A DNA stretch of 64,000 nt, from positions 64,001-128,000 of IMG/VR virus record IMGVR_UViG_3300025924_000017. One strand, written 5' to 3'. The DNA is from a virus (lineage: Duplodnaviria > Caudoviricetes). The notes beneath the pieces were generated by a model. That model saw only the letters and a list, made by a program, of their open reading frames with translations, was not told the DNA's origin and ran no database searches. Made by a program: the position numbers and the translations under genes. This document shows, piece by piece, positions 29,149 through 38,576 of the stretch (positions are counted from its first letter, which is position 1; each line of letters opens with the position of its first letter).

Positions 29149-29224
29149 ACCGGTTTAGCTCAGCGGTAGAGCGGTGGTCTCCAAAACCACGTCTGCGGAG
29201 GTTCGATCCCTTCAACCGGTGCCA
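29149..29224 (+). tRNA. tRNA-Trp(CCA)
   Basis: Full cloverleaf, loop CTCCAAA, encoded CCA. Confidence 0.9.
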
Positions 29225-29339
29225 GATTGCGAGTGTGTGGGGACGCACAGAGTCGTGCCTCGCCGGGACGACGGCCAGAAATGGATCACGAGTGCACGAG
29301 CGGGCTGATACCGCCACGTTGCTCCGGCCTCGCAAAGCT

Positions 29340-29414
29340 ATCGGTGTAGCTCAGTGGTAGAGCGGCGGCTTCCAATCCCGCGCGTCGGTGGTTCGATTCC
29401 ATCCACCTTTGCCA
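29340..29414 (+). tRNA. tRNA-Trp(CCA)-like with defective acceptor stem
   Basis: Normal D, anticodon (TTCCAAT) and T arms; two acceptor mismatches; CCA end. Confidence 0.55.
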
Positions 29415-29502
29415 ACTTGACGGCCCGTGAAAACGGTGACCGCCGCCCCGGGGGCAACCCCTCGAAGTACAAGAGACACGTATAGTCTCCGGGGAGAAAT
29501 AC

Positions 29503-29576
29503 GCGGGTCTGGTCTAGTGGCTGGGCCTCGGAGTGCCACTCCGATGAAGTCGGTTCGATCCCGGCGACCCGCACCA
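29503..29576 (+). tRNA. tRNA-Gly(GCC)
   Basis: Cloverleaf, loop GTGCCAC, CCA. Confidence 0.85.
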
Positions 29577-29580
29577 AATT

Positions 29581-29657
29581 GCGGCTGTCATTGATAATAG
29601 GCAGTCAGCCAGCCTTCCAAGCTGGAAGTACCGGATCGTCCCCGGTCAGCCGCTCCA
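29581..29657 (+). tRNA. tRNA-Gly(TCC)
   Basis: Loop CTTCCAA, T loop ATCGTCC, CCA. Confidence 0.8.
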
Positions 29658-29856: not shown

Positions 29857-30495
29857 ATGTCACACTACCCCAACTTCGGTATTCCTGCCGTCTACGTCGA
29901 TCCAAGCATCGTCAGCTTCACGGCGACACCGGCGCTCGCCGAGTTGGGCAGCACCGTCGATAGCGTTGTCCTCCGCTGGGACATCGCGAAGCAGCCGCTC
30001 TCGCTAATCGTTGACGGCGCAACGCTACCGCTGAACACACTACTCGTCACCAAAGAAGGCCCATTCACGACCAACCAGTCTTGGTCGATGAAAGCAGGCG
30101 ACGCCGAAGAGACGTTGACCGCGAAGACGACTCTTCAATTCGTCAACAAGCTCTACTCCGGTTTTGTCACCAGCGCGCCGACCAACAGCGCCGGTATTCT
30201 TGCGCTCGAAAACAGCACACTCAGCACCACACGCCAGTCGTCCGCGCAGATTGGCGCGCCAGCCGGTAAAGTTTGGTGCTACGCATATCCGAAGCGTCTC
30301 GGCACTGTGAAGATCGCGCGCGAAATTCCGAGCGGCGTGTGGGTGCCGACGACGTTGACCCAGAGCATGGTGTCCGGTACCGACTACACTGTCAGCGTCG
30401 TGTCATTCACGAATGCCTCCGGTTATACCGAGGATTATAACGTCGTGACCTTCAGCAATCCGCAGCCTGACAACACCGTGCTGACCTTCGGTTAG
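29857..30495 (+). CDS. Virion-like beta protein inside tRNA region
   Basis: ATG 29857; C-terminal half resembles C-terminus of ORF 54285. Confidence 0.7.
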   Translation: MSHYPNFGIPAVYVDPSIVSFTATPALAELGSTVDSVVLRWDIAKQPLSLIVDGATLPLNTLLVTKEGPFTTNQSWSMKAGDAEETLTAKTTLQFVNKLYSGFVTSAPTNSAGILALENSTLSTTRQSSAQIGAPAGKVWCYAYPKRLGTVKIAREIPSGVWVPTTLTQSMVSGTDYTVSVVSFTNASGYTEDYNVVTFSNPQPDNTVLTFG

Positions 30496-30505
30496 CACAT
30501 AATCG

Positions 30506-30532
30506 TTGACAATACCGCCGCGATGTGCGACA
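30506..30532 (+). promoter_or_regulatory. Promoter-like motif before leader 1
   Basis: TTGACAATACCGCCGCGATGTGCGACA. Confidence 0.6.
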
Positions 30533-30540
30533 ACCCCAAT

Positions 30541-30627
30541 ATGACGACTGTTCTTACCACGTCTGTCCTTCTTTCTCCCCGTGAGCTTGAACGCTCGACG
30601 GGTCGAGATATGCACGTCGTCGCCTAA
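30541..30627 (+). CDS. Putative leader peptide 1 (MTTVLTTSVLLSPRELERSTGRDMHVVA)
   Basis: 28-aa ORF between promoter motif and Glu/Asp tRNAs; stop lies in loop of a long hairpin. Confidence 0.55.
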   Translation: MTTVLTTSVLLSPRELERSTGRDMHVVA

Positions 30628-30669
30628 ACGGCACGACGTAAACTCCGCCCGTCCGAACTCAGCTTCTAT

Positions 30670-30745
30670 CCGGGCATCTTACTATCAGCGAAGTGGACGG
30701 GCTTTCAACCCGTAGAGCCGGGGGCAGCACCCGGTGTCCGGACCA
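30670..30745 (+). tRNA. tRNA-Glu(TTC)
   Basis: Loop CTTTCAA; T loop GGCAGCA; CCA. Confidence 0.8.
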
Positions 30746-30746
30746 T

Positions 30747-30822
30747 GCAAGATTCGTCTAGCGGTCTAGGATACTGGAACCTCACTCCAGTGACATCGGT
30801 TCAAATCCGTTATCTTGCGCCA
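30747..30822 (+). tRNA. tRNA-Glu(CTC)
   Basis: Loop ACCTCAC; TTCAAAT T loop; CCA. Confidence 0.8.
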
Positions 30823-30863
30823 AGCTGATCTCGATCCACCATCATCCGTACACTGAATAACTC

Positions 30864-30940
30864 GGGCGTGTAGCCGTCTGGTTGACGGCACCGGCTTGTC
30901 AAGCCGCCAGAGGCGAGTTCAATTCTCGTCACGCCCGCCA
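30864..30940 (+). tRNA. tRNA-Asp(GTC)
   Basis: Loop TTGTCAA; G73; CCA. Confidence 0.85.
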
Positions 30941-30941
30941 C

Positions 30942-31016
30942 GGTCTGTTCGTCTACCAGCTAGGATACTCGCCTGTCACGCGGGAGGAACGGGGGCAGCA
31001 CCCGTACAGATCGCCA
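30942..31016 (+). tRNA. tRNA-Asp(GTC)
   Basis: Loop CTGTCAC; T loop GGCAGCA; CCA. Confidence 0.85.
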
Positions 31017-31018
31017 CC

Positions 31019-31044
31019 TGTCATGGAAATTATGTTTCATGACA
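31019..31044. promoter_or_regulatory. 26-bp imperfect palindrome (operator-like)
   Basis: TGTCATGGAAATTATGTTTCATGACA. Confidence 0.5.
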
Positions 31045-31128
31045 CGGCCGTAACGTCGCAATTCTTGACTATGATGTCGCAAAGCGCGACAATTCTTGCT
31101 TCCCACAAATTTCCATCGGACTACGACA

Positions 31129-31332
31129 GTGGCGCAAGGCAAGAAGAACTTCATCCAAAAGGCGATCCCCAAGTCCCATCGCGGCGACCTTCACAAGGCG
31201 CTGGGCATTCCCAAGGGCAACATCATCCCGCACGACGTGCTTGAGGCAGCGGCGAAGCGGAAGGGCAAGGTCGGCGAGGAAGCGCGGTTAGCGCTCACCC
31301 TCGAAGGCATGCACCCCAGCGCGAAGAAGTAA
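31129..31332 (+). CDS. Small basic phage protein
   Basis: KNFIQKAI...GDLHKALGIP.G..IP...LEAAAKRKGKVGEEARLALTL pattern. Confidence 0.7.
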   Translation: MAQGKKNFIQKAIPKSHRGDLHKALGIPKGNIIPHDVLEAAAKRKGKVGEEARLALTLEGMHPSAKK

Positions 31333-31335
31333 GCT

Positions 31336-31509
31336 GTGAAGCACCAGAAGACCAAGGCGCCATCGCAGCGCCACCCGCAGGCCAAGAGCCTTCAGAATCT
31401 CCACGGCGCCAACGCGCCCGGCGCCGCATCGGCACAGATGCTTGTCGGCGGCCAGCAGGTTTCCCCAACCGATCCCGGCGTACAGGCGTGCGCAATGACC
31501 GGTAACTGA
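31336..31509 (+). CDS. Small hypothetical protein
   Basis: GTG start after upstream stop. Confidence 0.4.
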   Translation: MKHQKTKAPSQRHPQAKSLQNLHGANAPGAASAQMLVGGQQVSPTDPGVQACAMTGN

Positions 31510-31597
31510 ACATACCTTTCACAGAGGGCATGAGTGTAGGGCCGAAGCAGCGATGCTTCGGCCCTAAACTTTTTCTTGACCACTTTGTTTTGAATTG

Positions 31598-31624
31598 TTG
31601 ACTCGTTGTTCGTAATATGAGACA
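31598..31624 (+). promoter_or_regulatory. Promoter-like motif before leader 2
   Basis: TTGACTCGTTGTTCGTAATATGAGACA. Confidence 0.6.
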
Positions 31625-31669
31625 TACATCCCACACGGTGCTCATTCCGAGCGCCACGAAGGTTTGAAA

Positions 31670-31765
31670 ATGTTCGCAGTGCTTAAATCCAAGCCGAGTA
31701 CACATCTGGCATCCGCCAGCGTGCTGTCGCTCGCCTTGTCGCCTGCGACCACGCCAGCTATCTAA
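31670..31765 (+). CDS. Putative leader peptide 2 (MFAVLKSKPSTHLASASVLSLALSPATTPAI)
   Basis: 31-aa ORF; 26 of 30 post-Met codons are Pro/Thr/Lys/Leu/His/Ala/Ser, the amino acids of the downstream tRNAs. Confidence 0.75.
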   Translation: MFAVLKSKPSTHLASASVLSLALSPATTPAI

Positions 31766-31866
31766 AGCCGCGTCCGCGCGGCTCACGAGCCGCGCTCCAC
31801 CTTCTGAACTCCCCACACCCAGATCAGATCGCAGAGTTCGGCTCCTAAACAGGAGAACGAATACGT

Positions 31867-31942
31867 CTGCGTATAGCTTAGCTTGGTAGAGTACGACCCT
31901 CGGACGGTTGGGGCGGAGGTTCAAATCCTCCTACGCAGACCA
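31867..31942 (+). tRNA. tRNA-Pro(CGG)
   Basis: Loop CTCGGAC; CCA. Confidence 0.9.
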
Positions 31943-32010
31943 AGTTTACGGATCACGTGCGGAGGTTCAAATCCTCCTACGCAGACCAAGTTTACGGATC
32001 ACGTGCGGAG
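31913..32010 (+). repeat. 46-bp tandem duplication of tRNA-Pro 3' end
   Basis: GCGGAGGTTCAAATCCTCCTACGCAGACCAAGTTTACGGATCACGT x2 plus GCGGAG. Confidence 0.9.
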
Positions 32011-32034
32011 ATTCGCACTGAGACGATCTGAATT

Positions 32035-32123
32035 CAGAGTGTCGGGTAGCTTGGCTGATCTCGCCCGGTTTGGGGCCGGGAGTCGAAAGACACACGTTGG
32101 TTCGAATCCAACCACTCTGACCA
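32035..32123 (+). tRNA. tRNA-Pro(TGG), long variable arm
   Basis: Loop TTTGGGG; variable arm with GTC-GAAA-GAC; CCA. Confidence 0.85.
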
Positions 32124-32131
32124 TTTTTAAT

Positions 32132-32206
32132 CAGGCTTTAGCTCAGCAGGAGAGCGCCCGCTCGGGAAGCGGGAGGACGCTGTGGCAGTGACAGCAAGCC
32201 TGACCA
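32132..32206 (+). tRNA. tRNA-Pro(GGG)
   Basis: Loop TCGGGAA; T loop GGCAGTG; CCA. Confidence 0.85.
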
Positions 32207-32281
32207 GTTTCGTGCGGTGTCTGAGCGCTACAAATATCGGGAGACAGAAAAGCGAGACTTCCCGAGCCGCACTTCGAATTC

Positions 32282-32363
32282 GCCGGTTTGGCTCAGCAGC
32301 GACAGCAGCAGTTTTGTAAACTGCCATTCCACATCGGGGGTGCGAGTCCCTCAACCGGCACCA
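32282..32363 (+). tRNA. tRNA-Thr(TGT)
   Basis: Loop TTTGTAA; T loop TGCGAGT; CCA. Confidence 0.8.
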
Positions 32364-32370
32364 TCATCAT

Positions 32371-32445
32371 GCCCTCGAATAAGAGAAAGCGCTTTGCGTC
32401 ATTGGTAGTGACGAGAGGAACGGGCAGGTCGTTCCGGGGGCACCA
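32371..32445 (+). tRNA. tRNA-Thr(GGT)
   Basis: Loop TTGGTAG; T loop GGCAGGT; weak D arm; CCA. Confidence 0.7.
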
Positions 32446-32452
32446 ACAACAC

Positions 32453-32527
32453 GCCGACTAAATTGAGATAGCGTAAGACCGGACTCGTAATCTGGTAGGG
32501 GTGGCGCAAGTCCACCAGTCGGCACCA
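32453..32527 (+). tRNA. tRNA-Thr(CGT)
   Basis: Loop CTCGTAA; CCA. Confidence 0.8.
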
Positions 32528-32542
32528 AATCAAATCGAATAT

Positions 32543-32632
32543 GCGCTGGTGACCCGAGTAGCGAAGGGCTGAGACTCTTAATCTCATGATCTAAAAAATC
32601 CATCGCGGGTGCGAGTCCCGCCCAGCACACCA
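32543..32632 (+). tRNA. tRNA-Lys(CTT), long variable region
   Basis: Loop CTCTTAA; CCA. Confidence 0.8.
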
Positions 32633-32637
32633 ATTGA

Positions 32638-32731
32638 GCGCCGGTGACCCGAGAAGCGAAGGGCCGGGACTTTTAATCCTGTTTGGTGTTCAACACCATC
32701 GTCGTGGGTGCGAGTCCCACTCGGCACACCA
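32638..32731 (+). tRNA. tRNA-Lys(TTT), long variable arm
   Basis: Loop CTTTTAA; TGGTG-TTCAA-CACCA arm; CCA. Confidence 0.8.
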
Positions 32732-32741
32732 GTTTCAGTTT

Positions 32742-32825
32742 GGCCCTATGGCGTAATAGTAGGCGCGCTGGCTTCAGATACCAGTGTCTTTGGACGTGGG
32801 GGTGCAAGTCCCTCTAGGGCTACCA
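32742..32825 (+). tRNA. tRNA-Leu(CAG)
   Basis: Loop TTCAGAT; type II; A73. Confidence 0.85.
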
Positions 32826-32830
32826 AATTT

Positions 32831-32915
32831 GCTCCCGTGGCGGAACGGTAGACGCGCTCCCCTTAAAGCGGAGTGACCTCGTGTCGTGGGAGTTCGATTC
32901 TCTCCGGGAGTACCA
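32831..32915 (+). tRNA. tRNA-Leu(TAA)
   Basis: Loop CTTAAAG; type II. Confidence 0.85.
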
Positions 32916-32924
32916 GAAGAATTT

Positions 32925-33011
32925 GTCCGGCTGATCGGAATCAGTAGACGTGCTCGGCTCAAACCCGAGTGCCCTTGTGGCGTAGAGGTGCAAGTCCTCT
33001 GCCGGACACCA
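32925..33011 (+). tRNA. tRNA-Leu(CAA)
   Basis: Loop CTCAAAC; type II. Confidence 0.9.
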
Positions 33012-33015
33012 GTTT

Positions 33016-33099
33016 GCTCTTGTGGCGTAAAGGTAGGCGCGTTGGTTCGAGAAGCCAATGGGTAAAACCGTGGGGGTTCAAGTCCCTCCAAGAGCACCA
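33016..33099 (+). tRNA. tRNA-Leu(GAG)
   Basis: Loop TCGAGAA; type II. Confidence 0.9.
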
Positions 33100-33219
33100 A
33101 GTTGAGTGATCGCAAGCGTTAGGACCCTGTGCTGCTCCACGATGCACTGACAAGGTCTCACGGCGATTGAGAGAGGGCATCTCACGGCGGGTCCGCTCCG
33201 CACCACTCAAACAAAACAT

Positions 33220-33295
33220 GCTGACGTAGGACCTGAGGCTGGGTCGCCTGATTGTGAGTCAGGAGTGAGTGGTTCGATTCCGCACGTCAGTACCA
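33220..33295 (+). tRNA. tRNA-His(GTG), A73 and no G-1
   Basis: Loop TTGTGAG; ends CGTCAGT-A-CCA. Confidence 0.85.
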
Positions 33296-33304
33296 ATTCA
33301 ATTC

Positions 33305-33377
33305 GGGGTGTCCGCGAGGTCCGGACTTGATCTTTGCAAGATCGAAGCGGTGGGTGCGAGACCCACACACTCCGCCA
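33305..33377 (+). tRNA. tRNA-Ala(TGC), short D arm
   Basis: Loop TTTGCAA; G3:U70. Confidence 0.75.
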
Positions 33378-33384
33378 AGTATAT

Positions 33385-33460
33385 GGGCCTGTAGCTCAGT
33401 TGGGAGAGCGCCTGATTTGCACTCAGGATGTCGGGGGTTCAAATCCTCTCAGGTCCACCA
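33385..33460 (+). tRNA. tRNA-Ala(TGC)
   Basis: Canonical cloverleaf; G3:U70. Confidence 0.95.
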
Positions 33461-33466
33461 ACATAC

Positions 33467-33553
33467 GGATGCTGAACCCGGCGCGGGCTGGGACTCGCCT
33501 CGAAAGCGATGGGAGCCTCACGGCTTGGAGATCGAGCCTTCCGGCATCCGCCA
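33467..33553 (+). tRNA. tRNA-Ser(CGA)
   Basis: Loop CTCGAAA; long variable arm; G73. Confidence 0.85.
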
Positions 33554-33569
33554 ATCAAATGCGAAGAAG

Positions 33570-33863
33570 ATGAAGAAGATCGGAAAGAGATATCTGGAGC
33601 GAGCGCAATACTACCGACGTCTCGCGCACGCTACGTGTCCGACCTTGGACTTCTCCGATGAGGCGCTGCGCCGCTGCTACGAATGGGAGAGCCACGGTGT
33701 GCGCTGTAGCGATCCAGACAACGGATACATGACAGGCAAGTCGCTCGTGAACCTGAATGTCGCAATGTGGAAGGAAGACATCGTTCGCGGAACGCTTTTT
33801 CTGTTCGAGTTGCGTGAGGACCCTGACATTCCAGAATGGGTCTTGAAGAATTTCGGAGAGTGA
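33570..33863 (+). CDS. Hypothetical protein inside tRNA array
   Basis: MKKIGKRY...; stop overlaps 5' end of next tRNA. Confidence 0.6.
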   Translation: MKKIGKRYLERAQYYRRLAHATCPTLDFSDEALRRCYEWESHGVRCSDPDNGYMTGKSLVNLNVAMWKEDIVRGTLFLFELREDPDIPEWVLKNFGE

Positions 33864-33946
33864 ACCGAGCAGGGATGCCGGGCGCGTTTGCTAAACGATG
33901 CGGAGGCCGAAAGGCTTTTTCGGATCAAGACCGACGCTCTCCTCCA
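33855..33946 (+). tRNA. tRNA-Ser(GCT)
   Basis: Loop TTGCTAA; long variable arm; CCA. Confidence 0.8.
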
Positions 33947-33951
33947 GTCAT

Positions 33952-34043
33952 GGATGCTTGGCCGAGTGGCTTAAGGCGGCGGATTTGAAATCCGCAGGAC
34001 CTCACGCGAGGTTCCGTCCGTTCAAATCGGACAGCATCCTCCA
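33952..34043 (+). tRNA. tRNA-Ser(TGA)
   Basis: Loop TTTGAAA; long variable arm. Confidence 0.9.
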
Positions 34044-34113
34044 ATCTAGGGCCTAGCGCAGCGCAACGTCGCGGGAAGGGTGAGAGGGTAGCGTCGCGGC
34101 TACCCGCGTAATT

Positions 34114-34205
34114 GGAGAGTGAACCGGACACGCGTGCCGGGCCTGCTTGGAAAGCAACGCGGACGGTGCAAGCCGTTTGGGGCGCAAGTCCTCCGCTCTC
34201 CGCCA
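34114..34205 (+). tRNA. tRNA-Ser(GGA)
   Basis: Loop TTGGAAA; long variable arm. Confidence 0.8.
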
Positions 34206-34283
34206 AATCGCTTGACACGATCCACGTCAGTGTGCCATAGAATGCGACATCGCGCTTCTGCACCGGCGCGTCGGCCTAACGGC

Positions 34284-34383
34284 TAGGCCGGAGGGTTCGT
34301 CGAAGGGCGGAGAGGAGCAGGCTACGAGCCTGCGACCACATTGGTCTGAAAATCCGCCGCCCTGCGATCAACCCTCCGGCTAT
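34284..34383 (+). ncRNA. Candidate structured ncRNA
   Basis: 11-bp closing stem GCCGGAGGGTT/AACCCTCCGGC enclosing three further helices; TTGACA at 34212. Confidence 0.45.
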
Positions 34384-34398
34384 CAATTTTGGAAGTCG

Positions 34399-34611
34399 AT
34401 GTCACCTGAAGCTCTCACTCTGATCGCTAAGCTCCACGAAGCCCGCGACAAGCAAAACGCACCCCACGCGATCTACGCAACCGATAGGCCTGAGATGCTG
34501 GCGCTCGTTGCCGAACTCGTTGAACACGGTTATCTCGTCAAGCGTGTGCGTCGGGAAGTCGATCCTTTCGATTCCTACATGACAACTGACAAGAGCCTCC
34601 CAAACGCATGA
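34399..34611 (+). CDS. Hypothetical protein
   Basis: ORF track. Confidence 0.6.
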   Translation: MSPEALTLIAKLHEARDKQNAPHAIYATDRPEMLALVAELVEHGYLVKRVRREVDPFDSYMTTDKSLPNA

Positions 34612-34805
34612 GGCGGCGCAAGTCTTTTCCAGAACTCGAAGCGCGCGAGCGCGCGATCCGTGACAGCGACCACGCGCGGATAGCTCGGGGTTTGGAGCCG
34701 ATCCGCTGCCCACGATGCGGAGAGAACGCTTCGCACTTCTTCCCACCCTGTTTCGGCGACCCCGGCTTTTGGACGTGCGTCGGTGTCATGGTACCAGCCA
34801 CATGA
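34608..34805 (+). CDS. Small zinc-finger-like protein
   Basis: CPRCG...CFG...WTC; ATGA coupling. Confidence 0.55.
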   Translation: MRRRKSFPELEARERAIRDSDHARIARGLEPIRCPRCGENASHFFPPCFGDPGFWTCVGVMVPAT

Positions 34806-35023
34806 CGTGCAGCACCGCCAGACGCTACCAATACCTGAACGTCATCACCGACACCGGCGAGCGCAAGGTCTTGCGTGTCTCCGACGCCACCATGCGCCGC
34901 ATCACCGAAGCCGCCCACAAGGCTAAGAACCCGACGATCTGGCAGCGGATCGTGCGGGCGTTTAAGCGCGTCTTCGCATCTGTCGCGGATCGTGTCACAG
35001 CAGGGTTGACAAAACGACGCTGA
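34802..35023 (+). CDS. Hypothetical protein
   Basis: ATGA coupling. Confidence 0.55.
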   Translation: MTCSTARRYQYLNVITDTGERKVLRVSDATMRRITEAAHKAKNPTIWQRIVRAFKRVFASVADRVTAGLTKRR

Positions 35024-35062
35024 GCGGATATGCCGGGTCTTCGCCATGTGAAGGACCCGACA

Positions 35063-36904
35063 ATGCTTGACGCCCAGACCCTCGACCTCTTCAAGGTCAT
35101 TGTTCTCGACGAGTTTGCTGTGCCGCCGGAAGGGCTGAGCGCAAAGCCGTATCTGGAAGACCTCCAGCAGGGCTTCGTCACCAATTTCATCCCGACGCCC
35201 CTTCAGAGGGCCGCACTCTGCAAGGCGTTCAAGCCGCTTCCGCTGGTGACGCTGTTTTCGGTCGCCGAGCGCCGGGCGCCCGACATCACTCCGATGTCGC
35301 TGATCATGACGCAGCTTCTCCACTACATCGAGGTCTACGGCCTCGACCAGCCGGGCTTGTTCAATCTCGAAGTCAAGCAGGGTAGCGTCGTGGTTGTCGC
35401 CAACGTTCGCGGCGTGACGGTCGAGGAACTTGGCGACATGGTCCGCGCCCTGATCTACGCGAACGCGCCGGTCCGCAAGATCGAGGACGTGATCGAACTG
35501 ATCAAGTTCCACAACATTCCTTATGACCTCGCACTCGTGAAGAACAACGAAGCGCGCATCCGCTTGTACCGGGACGGCGATCAGTTTGCGTCCGGAGACG
35601 ACGCTGTCCGCTACATCGTCTTCAAGACGACCGGCGACTCGCTCCTGATCAAGTCCCCGGAAGTCGTCGCAGCCGTGAAGTCCGGCGAGCGACAGGTTTC
35701 GTTGCACTTCCTGATGGCGCACGAGACGGTCTTGGCGCAGGTGTTCAATCGCCACAAGCGCATCATCATGGCGTTGAAGAACCGGCGCACGGCACAGGCG
35801 ATCAACCGCATTTCGCGCTTCTCGAAGACGAAGCACGTCCCGCTCCGTCCGGCGCTCAACAAGACTTTCATCGCCCGCGCGCTCGGCGATCTGCCGTTCG
35901 ACTACGAGGACGCGCTGGAGGTCATCTCCCTGCGCGACAAGTTCAAGTACCTGAACCTGCTCGAATGGCGCCGCTTGCAGAATACCGATGACGTGTTCAT
36001 CATCCGCAACGGCCGCGCGCATTTGGAGCCGGATCGTAAGGTCTACCCCACCAAAGACATCACGGCGCTCATTATGAGTGTTGCGGACTCGATTGAGGCT
36101 GATCTGCGACATCTGCAAGGCAAGTCGATCCTGCTCGATCCCAATGTCGATTATGGTCTGCCGACCTCCCAGAAGCAGATGCTCGGCAGCCTGCCGTTCG
36201 GCACCACGATCTCGGTCGGTAACGGGAACATCTCGTCCGGCATCTATTGGGAGAACCGTTGGGGCGCGACCGATCTCGATCTGGCAGCCATCGACGAGTG
36301 GGGCGAACGCACCGGCTGGGGCGAGTTGTCCGGATTCGACAATAACAATCCGATCCTCTTCTCCGGCGACATCACGTCGGCACCTGAAGGCGCCATGGAG
36401 TTCATGACCTCGGCGACGACGGATTGTGAGCGCGTCTACGGACTGCTGGTGAACATCTTCAACGGGGGTAACGAGGCCGAATGCGAACTGCTCGTCGGCT
36501 CCCAGTTCGAAGGCAAGAACGGTCAGACGCGTTCCGGGCGATCCGCGAAGTGGATCAAGTCGCCGGTGATCCGGGAGAAGGTGAAGCTCACCTCTCGCGA
36601 GACGATCCTCGGCTTCGTACGGAACGGGAAGTTCGTCGTGTTCGCCCCGCGCCTGTCGAACCGCCGTGTGTCCGGCGGCGAGATCACGCGCCGTTTGATC
36701 GCGAAGGGCATGGCGCCGGTCTGGACGATCAGCAAGCTGCTCGCCGTTGCGGGAATCAAGTACGACACGACACCCGTTGACGGTGTTGTCTACGATTACG
36801 ATCTCTCGTACGCGTCGTTTTGTGTTGACAAAATGGAGCGCATGTTGTTCAATCCTCAGCAGGTTACGCCGCAAAAGACGTTCCTTACAGAAACAGCGGC
36901 CTAA
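35063..36904 (+). CDS. TerD-domain-containing stress/RNA-associated protein (putative)
   Basis: QLLHYIEVYG N-terminal motif; GIYWEN...DLDLAA...W...ILFSGDITSAPEGAMEF resembles TerD fold; AAGGA RBS. Confidence 0.6.
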   Translation: MLDAQTLDLFKVIVLDEFAVPPEGLSAKPYLEDLQQGFVTNFIPTPLQRAALCKAFKPLPLVTLFSVAERRAPDITPMSLIMTQLLHYIEVYGLDQPGLFNLEVKQGSVVVVANVRGVTVEELGDMVRALIYANAPVRKIEDVIELIKFHNIPYDLALVKNNEARIRLYRDGDQFASGDDAVRYIVFKTTGDSLLIKSPEVVAAVKSGERQVSLHFLMAHETVLAQVFNRHKRIIMALKNRRTAQAINRISRFSKTKHVPLRPALNKTFIARALGDLPFDYEDALEVISLRDKFKYLNLLEWRRLQNTDDVFIIRNGRAHLEPDRKVYPTKDITALIMSVADSIEADLRHLQGKSILLDPNVDYGLPTSQKQMLGSLPFGTTISVGNGNISSGIYWENRWGATDLDLAAIDEWGERTGWGELSGFDNNNPILFSGDITSAPEGAMEFMTSATTDCERVYGLLVNIFNGGNEAECELLVGSQFEGKNGQTRSGRSAKWIKSPVIREKVKLTSRETILGFVRNGKFVVFAPRLSNRRVSGGEITRRLIAKGMAPVWTISKLLAVAGIKYDTTPVDGVVYDYDLSYASFCVDKMERMLFNPQQVTPQKTFLTETAA

Positions 36905-36995
36905 AAAGCCGCTCCTAAAATACGTCTCGCGGTTTTCGATTTTGTTGCAAAGGGTGTTCCTTAAAAACCCTTCTATGGCAAACACACCCCGCAAC
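36869..36995 (+). ncRNA. Tandem pair of similar multi-branch RNA structures
   Basis: AGACGT/ACGTCT and GGGTGT/ACACCC stems each enclosing a TCCTTA..AAAC loop plus hairpin. Confidence 0.45.
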
Positions 36996-37007
36996 GCTCT
37001 CTGCGAG

Positions 37008-37040
37008 AGGCCATCCGAAAGGATGGCCTTTTGCATTTTG
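37008..37040 (+). terminator. Intrinsic terminator
   Basis: AGGCCATCC-GAAA-GGATGGCCT then T-rich run. Confidence 0.85.
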
Positions 37041-37044
37041 TTTC

Positions 37045-37071
37045 TTGACACGACTGCCGTGATATGAGACA
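37045..37071 (+). promoter_or_regulatory. Promoter-like motif before leader 3
   Basis: TTGACACGACTGCCGTGATATGAGACA. Confidence 0.6.
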
Positions 37072-37080
37072 ACCTTCTCC

Positions 37081-37179
37081 ATGAGCAAGACCTTTACCAA
37101 CGTGCAGCAAGTCGTCCGCCGGAATCGCTATATTCCGGGCGGGGCTTTCGCGCGTGTGGAGAAGGATCACGGGTTCTAA
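37081..37179 (+). CDS. Putative leader peptide 3 (MSKTFTNVQQVVRRNRYIPGGAFARVEKDHGF)
   Basis: 32-aa ORF; codons 7-18 all match downstream tRNAs; overlaps antiterminator strand. Confidence 0.8.
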   Translation: MSKTFTNVQQVVRRNRYIPGGAFARVEKDHGF

Positions 37180-37247
37180 ACCCAAAAGCTCTCCAAAGTT
37201 CTGCGAAAGGCCCGCCCGGTAAGCTCCGAGCGGGCCTTTTGCTTTTT
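37137..37247 (+). promoter_or_regulatory. Transcription attenuator (antiterminator/terminator)
   Basis: 37137-37151 GGGCGGGGCTTTCGC pairs (14/15) with 37203-37217, overlapping terminator AAAGGCCCGC/GCGGGCCTTT + T run. Confidence 0.8.
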
Positions 37248-37256
37248 GCCTTTCAC

Positions 37257-37342
37257 GCGGATGCGAACGAGAGGCGAGCGATTGACGGTCTGTAAAACCG
37301 TTGCCTATGGCTGAATGGGTTCAATTCCCATCATCCGCACCA
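37257..37342 (+). tRNA. tRNA-Tyr(GTA)
   Basis: Loop CTGTAAA; long variable arm. Confidence 0.9.
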
Positions 37343-37378
37343 AGGCAAAAACGAGAAGGTACGCAAGGAGAAGAATTT

Positions 37379-37455
37379 GCTTCGGTAGCTCAGTTGGTAA
37401 GAGCGCTGGCTTGAAATCCCAGAGGTCGATGCGTCGAGTGCATCCCGGAGCACCA
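37379..37455 (+). tRNA. tRNA-Phe(GAA)
   Basis: Loop TTGAAAT; T loop GTCGAGT. Confidence 0.85.
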
Positions 37456-37460
37456 TACAC

Positions 37461-37536
37461 AGTCCGTTAGCTCATTCAGGAGAGCGCTGGTGTCACATAC
37501 CAGAGGCGCACGGGGCAGAGCCGTGACGGACTACCA
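37461..37536 (+). tRNA. tRNA-Val(CAC)
   Basis: Loop GTCACAT; T loop GGCAGAG. Confidence 0.85.
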
Positions 37537-37540
37537 GCTT

Positions 37541-37616
37541 CCACCCGAGGCTGACTAGTGAGGCGGGCACCTGATTAGTGCCGTCAAGGTGAGTGCGATC
37601 CTCACCGGGTGGTCCA
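37541..37616 (+). tRNA. tRNA-Ile(GAT)
   Basis: Loop CTGATTA; T loop TGCGATC; atypical T37 and T73. Confidence 0.7.
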
Positions 37617-37654
37617 GTTTTCAGATCAGCGATGGAGATTCGTCGCTGGTTTTT

Positions 37655-37730
37655 AGTCCGATAGCTCATTCAGGAGAGCGCCGCTGTGACATGGCGGAGG
37701 TGCGCGGGGCAGAACCGCGTCGGACTACCA
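37655..37730 (+). tRNA. tRNA-Val(GAC)
   Basis: Loop GTGACAT; T loop GGCAGAA. Confidence 0.85.
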
Positions 37731-37736
37731 AATCAT

Positions 37737-37813
37737 TCTCCGTTAGCTGGTCGGTCTGGCCGCTGGGCTCTGAACCCGGAAAGAAGAACGTTCGAATCGT
37801 TCGCGGAGAGCCA
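37737..37813 (+). tRNA. tRNA-Gln(CTG)
   Basis: Loop CTCTGAA; U1:A72, G73. Confidence 0.85.
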
Positions 37814-37818
37814 AACAT

Positions 37819-37894
37819 TGCCCGTTAATTGCTAGGTGCGGTCGCCGGGTTTTGACCCCGGTAGGAAAAGGTTCGAATCCTTTGCGGGCATCCA
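37819..37894 (+). tRNA. tRNA-Gln(TTG)
   Basis: Loop TTTTGAC. Confidence 0.85.
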
Positions 37895-37900
37895 GAACAT

Positions 37901-37985
37901 TCCCTTCTGGCGGAACGAGTAGACGCGCTGCACTGTTAATGCAGTATCGAAAGATGTGCAGGGGCGGAGCCTGCGGAGGGAGCCA
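37901..37985 (+). tRNA. tRNA-Asn(GTT), type II-like body
   Basis: Loop CTGTTAA; Leu-like D arm GGCGGAACGAGTAGACGC; long variable arm; T loop GGCGGAG. Confidence 0.8.
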
Positions 37986-37994
37986 ATCAAATTT

Positions 37995-38070
37995 TGGTGT
38001 GTAGCTCAGTCGGCAGAGCGGCGGATTGTTAATCCGAAGGTCGCAGGATCGTACCCTGCCACGCCAGCCA
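37995..38070 (+). tRNA. tRNA-Asn(GTT)
   Basis: Loop TTGTTAA; G73. Confidence 0.85.
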
Positions 38071-38076
38071 AATTAT

Positions 38077-38158
38077 AGTCGCGAAGTGCTGAATGGAACG
38101 GAGGCAACGCACTACGAATGCGTAAACCCTGTGGGTTCGAGTCCCACCGCGACTACCA
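38077..38158 (+). tRNA. tRNA-Arg(ACG)
   Basis: Loop CTACGAA. Confidence 0.8.
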
Positions 38159-38165
38159 GTTTTGA

Positions 38166-38241
38166 CGTGCCGTCGCCTAAAGGTAAGGCCCTTCGCTCAT
38201 AACGACAGTGTATGTGAGTTCGATTCTCACCGGCACCACCA
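38166..38241 (+). tRNA. tRNA-Met(CAT)
   Basis: Loop CTCATAA; C1:C72 mismatch; weak anticodon stem. Confidence 0.7.
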
Positions 38242-38244
38242 AAT

Positions 38245-38327
38245 GGCCCCGTAGCTCAGCGGACAGAGCGCCGGTCTTCTAAGCCGGGAAATCAACGTCG
38301 GGGGTTCGACTCCCTCCGGGGCTTCCA
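38245..38327 (+). tRNA. tRNA-Arg(TCT)
   Basis: Loop CTTCTAA. Confidence 0.9.
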
Positions 38328-38333
38328 GATCAC

Positions 38334-38408
38334 AGCCGCGTAGCTCAACGGAAAGAGCGCCAGTTTCCGAAACTGAGGATCGGTGTTCGATTCACCGCGC
38401 GGCTACCA
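38334..38408 (+). tRNA. tRNA-Arg(CCG)
   Basis: Loop TTCCGAA. Confidence 0.9.
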
Positions 38409-38576
38409 GTTCCGCCCTGTCATCTTTCTTGTCGATAATGTCGTCGTTCTTGACGAATACTCACCTCTATCATAAAATGCGGCCCATCAAACATCGCTAC
38501 GTGCCGGGGGCTCGAATGCGGATCGTCAGGGCGCATTTTGTCGCGCCCCGAAGTCAAAGCACCAGAGGGTTGCGTA

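Follow-up and report, generated by a model that had tools for sequence, protein, structure and literature searches.

The window analyzed here, a stretch of 64,000 nucleotides comprising bases 64001 to 128000 of a single phage genome of 225,611 bp (59% G+C; IMG/VR record IMGVR_UViG_3300025924_000017), contains three tRNA blocks that are each preceded by a promoter-like motif and a mini-open reading frame (mini-ORF). These three leader-tRNA units, regarded as candidate transcription attenuators, are the subject of our analysis, and all positions given for them are those of the window (Table 1). By sequence, the phage is assigned to the subfamily Dolichocephalovirinae as a divergent phiCbK-like siphovirus, because its tail-tube protein shares 57 to 60% identity with the corresponding proteins of phiCbK, Rogue, BL10, and a Brevundimonas phage. 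Phages of this family are known to infect the alphaproteobacteria Caulobacter and Brevundimonas. No close DNA relative was detected among GenBank phages by megablast with positions 30400 to 38500, and a sensitive blastn search of the GenBank phages returned scattered tRNA matches only. The gene order is shared with phiCbK and runs from Trp/Gly tRNAs through Glu/Asp tRNAs, small genes, Pro...Ser tRNAs, and Tyr...Arg tRNAs to PhoH and the tail genes; the clade of the window has an extra gene, encoding a protein of 624 amino acids (aa), between the Pro...Ser and Tyr...Arg blocks.

An earlier interpretation made from the letters alone (here called the sequence-only reading) had described three tRNA sub-arrays, for Glu/Asp, for Pro/Thr/Lys/Leu/His/Ala/Ser, and for Tyr/Phe/Val/Ile/Gln/Asn/Arg/Met, each placed after the same 27-bp motif and an ORF of 28 to 32 aa. 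This description is borne out by our analysis, the tRNA content being as listed with the addition of about a dozen genes that were missed by ARAGORN and recovered by Rfam at a relaxed threshold together with folding. The motif reads TTGAC-N12-ATRTGNGACA and is followed each time by the mini-ORF and the tRNA block; on both strands of the whole genome, its 3' half, ATRTGNGACA, occurs only at these three sites. A motif of the type TTGAC...TGTGAGA also lies upstream of leader 1 in L033, L034, phiCbK, and CcrSC. In phiCbK, predicted rho-independent terminators are annotated just upstream of all three blocks. The Trp/Gly tRNA block of the window (29149 to 29657) lies directly 3' of a protein gene and has no leader.

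Table 1. Positions of the promoter-like motifs, leaders, RNA elements, and tRNA genes of the three units in the window
Feature	Position	Strand	Description
Promoter-like P1	30506..30532	+	TTGACA-N11-GATGTGCGACA
Leader 1 ORF	30541..30627	+	28 codons, MTTVLTTSVLLSPRELERSTGRDMHVVA
Leader 1 core	30577..30609	+	33 nt invariant in the window, L033, and L034; GAG, GAA, and GAT codons
Hairpin with leader 1 stop codon in loop	30614..30639	+	Read from sequence
tRNA block 1	30669..30940	+	Glu-UUC (30669-30745, noncanonical T-loop), Glu-CUC, Asp-GUC
tRNA missed by ARAGORN, block 1			Glu-UUC 30669
Intrinsic terminator insulating unit 2	31537..31566	+	Strong; 13-bp stem and T run
Promoter-like P2	31598..31624	+	TTGACT-N11-AATATGAGACA; kept in L033, L034, and L007 (alignment)
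Leader 2 ORF	31670..31765	+	31 codons, MFAVLKSKPSTHLASASVLSLALSPATTPAI; Shine-Dalgarno-like GAAGG 7 nt upstream of ATG
Three-arm switch	31766..31794	+	a = AGCCGCG, b = CGCGGCT, c = AGCCGCG; abuts stop codon (31763-31765)
C-rich, G-poor tract and small hairpin before tRNA-Pro	31795..31866	+	First 45 nt 42% C, 13% G
tRNA block 2	31867..34205	+	Pro x3, Thr x3, Lys x2, Leu x4, His, Ala x2, Ser x4
tRNAs missed by ARAGORN, block 2			Pro-GGG 32132, Thr-GGU 32371, Thr-CGU 32453, Ser-CGA ~33467, Ser-GCU 33855, Ser-GGA 34114
Small protein ORF inside block 2	~33570-33863		
Intrinsic terminator insulating unit 3 from upstream 624-aa gene	37002..37035	+	Strong; 15-bp stem and T run
Promoter-like P3	37045..37071	+	TTGACA-N11-GATATGAGACA
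Leader 3 ORF	37081..37179	+	32 codons, MSKTFTNVQQVVRRNRYIPGGAFARVEKDHGF
Leader 3 region 1	37102..37124	+	Codons 8-15, control codons; pairs with region 2 (duplex -21.8 kcal/mol)
Leader 3 region 2	37134..37153	+	Pairs with region 1 or region 3 (2:3 = antiterminator; duplex -36.7 kcal/mol)
Leader 3 region 3	37195..37219	+	Terminator 5' arm
Leader 3 region 4 and U tract	37226..37247	+	Terminator 3' arm; 9 nt before tRNA-Tyr (37257)
tRNA block 3	37257..38408	+	Tyr, Phe, Val-CAC, Ile, Val-GAC, Gln x2, Asn x2, Arg-ACG, Met, Arg-UCU, Arg-CCG
tRNAs missed by ARAGORN, block 3			Tyr 37257, Val-CAC 37461, Ile 37541, Val-GAC 37655

Relatives with the same arrays were traced as metagenomic contigs via homologues of the neighboring 624-aa and 239-aa proteins, and two further metagenomic relatives were obtained with a DNA pattern of the leader 3 hairpin. 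When GenBank was searched with the leader 3 region of phiCbK, 48 records of Caulobacter and Brevundimonas phages proved to carry the element. The leader 3 pattern matched 21 loci (1 in IMG/VR and 20 in metagenome contigs), of which about two thirds were chance matches inside unrelated genes and were dropped. A separate IMG/VR hit, L001, is a distant phage of 98 kb that has no tRNAs close by and was uninformative. A DNA pattern for leader 2 gave no matches in IMG/VR.

Leader 3 was identified in 17 lineages, namely, the window, five metagenomic relatives, phiCbK, Rogue, BL57, BL10, Colossus, CcrPW, CcrSC, BL9, RB23, and the Brevundimonas phages Bambus and Gurke. In all 17 the ORF comprises 31 to 34 codons and TTGAC lies 35 to 38 nt upstream of its ATG, a spacing that would put the start of transcription on or beside the start codon, and the leader 3 mRNA is probably leaderless. 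In the 16 relatives, 13 to 16 of the first 17 residues belong to the set {Y,F,V,I,Q,N,R,M}, while the block that follows carries Tyr/Phe/Val/Ile/Gln/Asn/Arg tRNAs in every lineage. The two are also absent together, as relatives that keep the 624-aa gene and have no block 3 have no leader 3 either. Four segments can be named in every lineage, with region 1, the control-codon run, spanning nucleotides 19 to 49 of the ORF and region 2 spanning nucleotides 50 to 80; the helices 1:2, 2:3, and 3:4 that they form are mutually exclusive, and a GC stem followed by a U tract is present in all 17 lineages. The calculated energies are -15 to -16 kcal/mol for the local 1:2 hairpin, -20 to -29 for the 1:2 duplex, -30 to -41 for 2:3, and -24 to -31 for 3:4. 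When region 1 was masked, which mimics a stalled ribosome, the minimum-energy fold was the antiterminator in five of six sequences; in two sequences the antiterminator was the global minimum even without masking. No promoter-like site was found inside block 3, and since the terminator lies 9 nt upstream, the block can be entered by read-through only.

The alternative helices of leader 3 covary, as judged from an alignment of 16 sequences with 500 column shuffles and with controls in which the partner segment was slid. Pairing reaches 85% in helix 2:3, where both partners have changed in 8 pairs, and 92% in helices 1:2 and 3:4 taken jointly, which have 12 such pairs; in neither case did any of the 500 shuffles score as high. 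Helix 3:4 by itself is 96% paired, again with 8 pairs changed on both sides, and helix 1:2 covaries as well. Sliding the partner by 1 to 3 columns lowered the pairing to 28 to 60%. A compensatory change can be read in CcrSC and BL9, which have UCGGACGGGCC / GGCCCGUCCGA where phiCbK has CCGGGCGGGCC / GGCCCGCCUGG, with region 1 altered to match. Between the clade of the window and the phiCbK group, the loop of 1:2 differs in length by 4 or 7 nt, and region 2 and the rest of the ORF are read in another frame (...YIPGGAFARVEKDHGF versus ...IRAGRSRMADEGFRD), whereas the helices and the codon run at the N terminus persist, a pattern that favors selection on RNA structure and codon content over selection on the protein. 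As a separate observation, several Caulobacter and Brevundimonas phages carry an additional mini-ORF, equipped with a Shine-Dalgarno sequence, in the interval from the leader 3 terminator to tRNA-Tyr, reading MNNGG* in Rogue (L037:2170-2215) and Colossus (L038:2160-2205) and MTGGD* in Bambus (L040, ~2160-2200); it is absent from the window.

Leader 2 was found in 11 lineages, in which 84 to 95% of its residues fall in the set {P,T,K,L,H,A,S} and the block that follows always carries Pro/Thr/Lys/Leu/His/Ala/Ser tRNAs. The peptide sequence itself drifts, from MFAVLKSKPSTHLAS... in the window to MTFSTHKPSTLKPATG... in Colossus and VTKLSHKLSLHSTAAS... in Gurke. Leader 2 corresponds to gp083 of phiCbK, which is annotated as a hypothetical protein. 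The three arms that abut its stop codon in the window can form two mutually exclusive hairpins, H1 (a:b, -12.7 kcal/mol) and H2 (b:c, -15.0 kcal/mol), and L007 displays the same three-arm design in unrelated letters (CGCTGCACC / GGTGCAGCC / CGCTGCACC). In phiCbK and Gurke, canonical terminators occupy the leader 2 position before tRNA-Pro, while neither a U-tract terminator nor a promoter-like site was detected between 31795 and 31866 of the window; in the clade of the window, the output of leader 2 could be a weak intrinsic terminator or Rho-dependent termination, or hairpin b:c may work in some other way.

The match between leaders and blocks was evaluated by binomial tests against the amino acid frequencies of the long ORFs of the phage. 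In leader 2, 26 of 30 residues belong to its own set (p = 3e-7), as do 13 of the first 17 residues in leader 3 (p = 7e-4). A six-frame survey of the genome gives 515 ORFs of 25 to 40 codons that start with ATG; leader 2 and leader 3 each head this list for their own set and are unremarkable for that of the other. When all amino acid sets of the same size were scored against leader 2, its composition being taken as given, the real tRNA set was within the best 7 of 77,520 for the window and the single best for phiCbK and Colossus; against leader 3, it was within the best 663 of 125,970 for the window and within the best 4 for Gurke. Finally, with the 20 amino acids partitioned at random into groups of the real block sizes, none of 10^6 trials equaled leaders 2 and 3 jointly.

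This last result bears directly on the alternative that the ORFs encode small low-complexity proteins, with the hairpins being ordinary terminators or insulators and the match to the tRNA sets a coincidence. Leader 2 is indeed annotated as protein coding in the GenBank records of phiCbK, Rogue, BL57, BL10, and CcrSC, and the core of leader 1 is conserved at the peptide level. However, coincidence is hard to reconcile with the joint permutation, leader 2 conserves its composition and not its sequence, the C-terminal half of leader 3 switches frame between clades while the helices covary, and a plain terminator 9 nt before a promoterless tRNA block would silence that block, so that we consider this explanation quite improbable.

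Leader 1 is kept in six lineages (the window, L033, L034, phiCbK, CcrSC, and Gurke) with 20 to 28 codons and a shared motif, R-E-x-E-(3 to 4 residues)-G-R/L-D. Two small hairpins, CGAGC/GCTCG and CTCGAC/GTCGAG, overlap within its core. The distance from TTGAC to the ATG is 35 nt, another ATG (30523) falls within the -10 element, and leader 1 is probably leaderless. The equivalent of the hairpin at its end is annotated in phiCbK as an intrinsic terminator; the 5' arm of this terminator is part of the ORF, and its loop contains the stop codon.

In the attenuators of amino acid biosynthesis operons such as trp, his, ilv, and thr, stalling of the ribosome on codons for uncharged tRNAs leads to read-through. 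We think it likely, from the features described above, that blocks 2 and 3, and perhaps block 1, are units gated by leader-peptide attenuators whose control codons name the amino acids of the downstream tRNAs, and that a tRNA block is probably expressed only while its codons are being read slowly by ribosomes. In unit 3, transcription would begin at or beside the ATG of the 32-codon ORF, of which codons 5 to 18 (Phe, Thr, Asn, Val, Gln, Gln, Val, Val, Arg, Arg, Asn, Arg, Tyr, and Ile) overlap region 1. If ribosomes ran through the ORF, helix 1:2 would re-pair, and the U-tract terminator 3:4 would form before tRNA-Tyr and stop transcription; if a charged tRNA were scarce, a ribosome stalled on a control codon would cover region 1, the antiterminator 2:3 would form, and the polymerase would enter the block. 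The new tRNAs would then lift the stall and thereby close a negative feedback loop. In unit 2, the sensor would be the ORF of Pro/Thr/Lys/Leu/His/Ala/Ser codons together with the three arms next to its stop codon: arm a would be hidden by a ribosome that terminates, so that b:c would form, while a:b would become possible with a ribosome stalled upstream. Unit 1 has the same layout, and the proposal is weaker there than for units 2 and 3. This scheme supposes that the leader ORFs are translated, that stalling causes the read-through, and that the signal would be tRNA supply rather than amino acid supply or general translation; shortage or cleavage of host tRNAs, which the sequence-only reading had named as the trigger, may be what is sensed.

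The attenuator interpretation thus holds strongly for leader 3, with its region 1 codons, its three covarying helices, and its terminator abutting the tRNA; it holds in part for leader 2, given the extreme conserved composition and the three-arm switch, and weakly for leader 1, in which the ORF and the Glu-x-Glu...Asp core are kept. Several observations weigh against it. The stop codon of leader 3 lies about 25 nt past region 2, so that a terminating ribosome leaves region 2 uncovered, unlike in trpL. Over the whole leader 3 ORF of the window the match falls to 17 of 31 residues (p = 0.02 only), and the cut after 17 codons, which coincides with region 1, was set post hoc. The lineages are related, and per-lineage p-values are consequently not independent. 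In leader 2, the hairpin b:c deemed to be the "off" state has no U tract in the clade of the window, the C-rich tract standing there instead, and folding with a masked ribosome revealed no clear switch in phiCbK or Gurke. Leader 1 has 3 Glu/Asp among 27 residues (p = 0.67) and thus no enrichment, and in this genome its hairpin is not followed by a U tract. The claim that each leader contains the amino acids served by its block and that leaders 2 and 3 are enriched for them accordingly stands for those two leaders, whereas containing all of them is trivial in leader 1.

Synonymous codon choice adds a further point of the same kind. With wobble, leader 2 samples 18 of the 18 anticodons of block 2 and leader 3 samples 10 of 12, yet when the peptide was fixed and codons were drawn from phage usage, this coverage was reached in 8% of draws for leader 2 (p = 0.08) and in 29 to 44% for leader 3 (p = 0.29 to 0.44). 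Mirroring of anticodons at the codon level, although descriptively true, was therefore dropped as not significant once the peptide is fixed, and the enrichment foreseen by the sequence-only reading is retained for amino acid composition and not for synonymous codons. As for its suggestion that leader codons covary with downstream anticodons across relatives, ATA codons are found in the leaders of L007 and L008, the sole carriers of tRNA-Ile-UAU, and CGA only where tRNA-Arg-ACG is present; this pairing of rare codon and rare tRNA is suggestive, but the lineages concerned are close kin and the independent events very few.

Synonymous codons that are not tuned to the anticodons, and a leader 1 without enrichment, are also what would be expected if the leaders were real attenuators acting as general translation sensors, responding to ribosome availability, polymerase-ribosome coupling, or infection stage, with the codon content as a by-product. 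The architecture alone is silent on the cause of a stall. However, a general sensor gives no reason why two distinct, block-matched sets should be kept over 11 to 17 lineages despite peptide drift, and we regard it as unlikely, if the least so of the alternatives weighed here. The missing canonical terminators in leader 1 and in leader 2 of the window's clade would in turn fit elements for processing or stability of the tRNA precursors (an RNase E or RNase P entry site or a 5' cap-like hairpin), or else a reversed logic in which efficient translation permits read-through; since the 5' arm of the phiCbK leader 1 terminator belongs to the ORF and the loop carries the stop codon, termination there could be blocked by ribosomes translating the leader. 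Against both stand the textbook GC stem and U tract of leader 3 in 17 of 17 lineages and its antiterminator, which needs region 1 to be occupied, and a processing element has no need for an ORF of fixed length and start position. This last alternative is, in our judgment, the most doubtful of those considered, and attenuation by codon-specific stalling is the interpretation that we carry forward.

Multivalent leader attenuators of this kind are textbook systems in the enterobacterial ilvGMEDA, ilvBN, and thr operons. Like leader 3, the leaders of ilvGMEDA (32 aa; Ile/Val/Leu), ilvBN, and thr (Thr/Ile) consist of an ORF of about 30 codons that is rich in the codons of several amino acids, with the control codons in region 1, and they form exclusive helices 1:2, 2:3, and 3:4 with an intrinsic terminator directly before the regulated genes. 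Unlike them, the phage leaders are viral elements, precede tRNA genes rather than genes of biosynthetic enzymes, and address seven or eight amino acids each; leader 3 differs further in its probably leaderless mRNA and in a stop codon placed well past region 2. In E. coli, a leader peptide controls the aminoacyl-tRNA synthetase operon pheST. That system shares with the phage units the attenuation of a gene of the translation apparatus, in which decoding speed feeds back on decoding capacity, but it concerns one synthetase protein and one amino acid, while the phage product is the tRNA itself, with several species made together. The pheL leader, related to the pheST attenuator, is discussed in PMC3082878. 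In trpL, including its version in the alphaproteobacterium Sinorhizobium (PMC6614838), a stall in region 1 frees region 2 for the antiterminator, as proposed for leader 3, but the signal is a single amino acid, the target is biosynthesis, and the terminating ribosome covers region 2.

T-box riboswitches are a functional analogy only, as their terminator read-through also depends on the state of a specific tRNA, but they bind uncharged tRNA directly and have no ORF. Rfam detected no T-box (at the gathering threshold and at E <= 5) or other known leader family between 28500 and 39500, where only tRNAs passed the threshold; a "Thr_leader" match of 21 bits on the minus strand was far below threshold and was taken as chance. 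A possible model for leader 2 in the clade of the window is offered by mgtL/mgtP of Salmonella mgtA/mgtCBR (PMC3641672) and by tnaC, in which a leader ORF controls Rho-dependent or structure-dependent termination; the features in common are the short ORF, the alternative hairpins where it ends, and a tract rich in C and poor in G that takes the place of a U-tract terminator. Rho dependence is here a guess, however, and in phiCbK and Gurke the corresponding site has an intrinsic terminator.

Some further features of the tRNA genes deserve mention. Six tRNA-like genes (30718, 30989, 32179, 32418, 37509, and 37703) have the 7-nt T-arm loop GGCAGNN in place of the usual TTCRANY; five of them are Glu-UUC, Pro-GGG, Thr-GGU, Val-CAC, and Val-GAC, the sixth is located after tRNA-Asp, and each has an acceptor strand followed by CCA, most being missed by ARAGORN and by the Rfam gathering threshold. 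The two tRNA-Lys (90 and 94 nt; 32543 to 32731), tRNA-Pro-UGG (89 nt; 32035 to 32123), and one tRNA-Asn (85 nt; 37901 to 37985) are overlong for class I tRNAs, and long tRNA-Lys genes (87 to 91 nt) are annotated in phiCbK, Rogue, and Colossus too. A perfect 46-nt tandem duplication of the 3' half of tRNA-Pro-CGG and its spacer (31913 to 32004) leaves a partial tRNA copy between Pro-CGG and Pro-UGG. Between tRNA-Leu-GAG and tRNA-His lies a structured stretch of 121 nt (33100 to 33220; -38 kcal/mol) with no recognizable tRNA. In phiCbK (JX100813), an unannotated tRNA-Tyr-like gene stands directly 3' of the leader 3 terminator (L036:13543-13625, at ~51.5 kb), its anticodon GUA being read by eye with no call by ARAGORN, and relaxed ARAGORN settings revealed Thr, His, and Ala genes in block 2 of this phage; according to the phiCbK genome paper, these phages have no Thr or Tyr tRNAs.

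Between blocks 2 and 3, the 624-aa protein (35030 to 36904) has no Pfam domain; hundreds of relatives 45 to 69% identical to it occur in metagenomic phage contigs, and the Synechococcus phages S-CBWM1 and S-CRM01 have relatives at 25 to 28%. A conserved noncoding element of about 110 nt (36880 to 37000) lies between this gene and its terminator and was also found at L006:2632-2800, L002:10678-10850, L005:11811-11995, and L011:3866-4032. It comprises two copies of GTTCCTTA, a block ACGTCTCGCGG, and a predicted stem GGGTGT/ACACCC with a compensatory change from G-C to A-U; it is kept even in relatives without the tRNA block and has no Rfam match.

Our literature search retrieved no account of attenuators upstream of tRNA genes or in phages like phiCbK, and term look-ups in the phiCbK genome paper, the paper on an Erythrobacter Cbk-like phage, and the RNA sequencing study of phiCbK infection gave no mention of attenuation or leader peptides ahead of tRNA genes. 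The sequence-only reading, which could cite no multivalent attenuation of phage tRNA arrays, is in agreement with this search. That the regulated genes are tRNAs, and not genes of biosynthesis or of synthetases, is the point of novelty and no flaw in the mechanism.

Phage tRNA genes are usually viewed as constitutive helpers in codon usage or as counters to tRNA-cleaving defenses. To our knowledge, essentially nothing is established about the control of their expression. If the interpretation is true, the leaders described here would be the first case known to us in which codon-specific decoding speed feeds back on the transcription of the cognate tRNAs. In a wider sense, to which we lean with rather less assurance than to attenuation itself, the units may constitute a tRNA-supply homeostat of giant phages, in which leaders gauge the decoding speed of each codon family, so that only limiting host tRNAs would be replaced, whether limitation came from codon-usage mismatch, host shut-off, or an anticodon-nuclease defense, and a block would be turned off once supply was restored; the Dolichocephalovirinae would then have split the amino acids into fixed sensor channels kept throughout the subfamily. 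The same interpretation explains why annotated "rho-independent terminators" stand immediately before the tRNA blocks of phiCbK and what its "hypothetical protein" gp083 is. Since phiCbK has the same elements and is a phage in culture whose host, Caulobacter crescentus, is a genetic model, the idea is directly testable, and, if true, it would carry classical attenuation beyond metabolism, into the translation apparatus of a virus.

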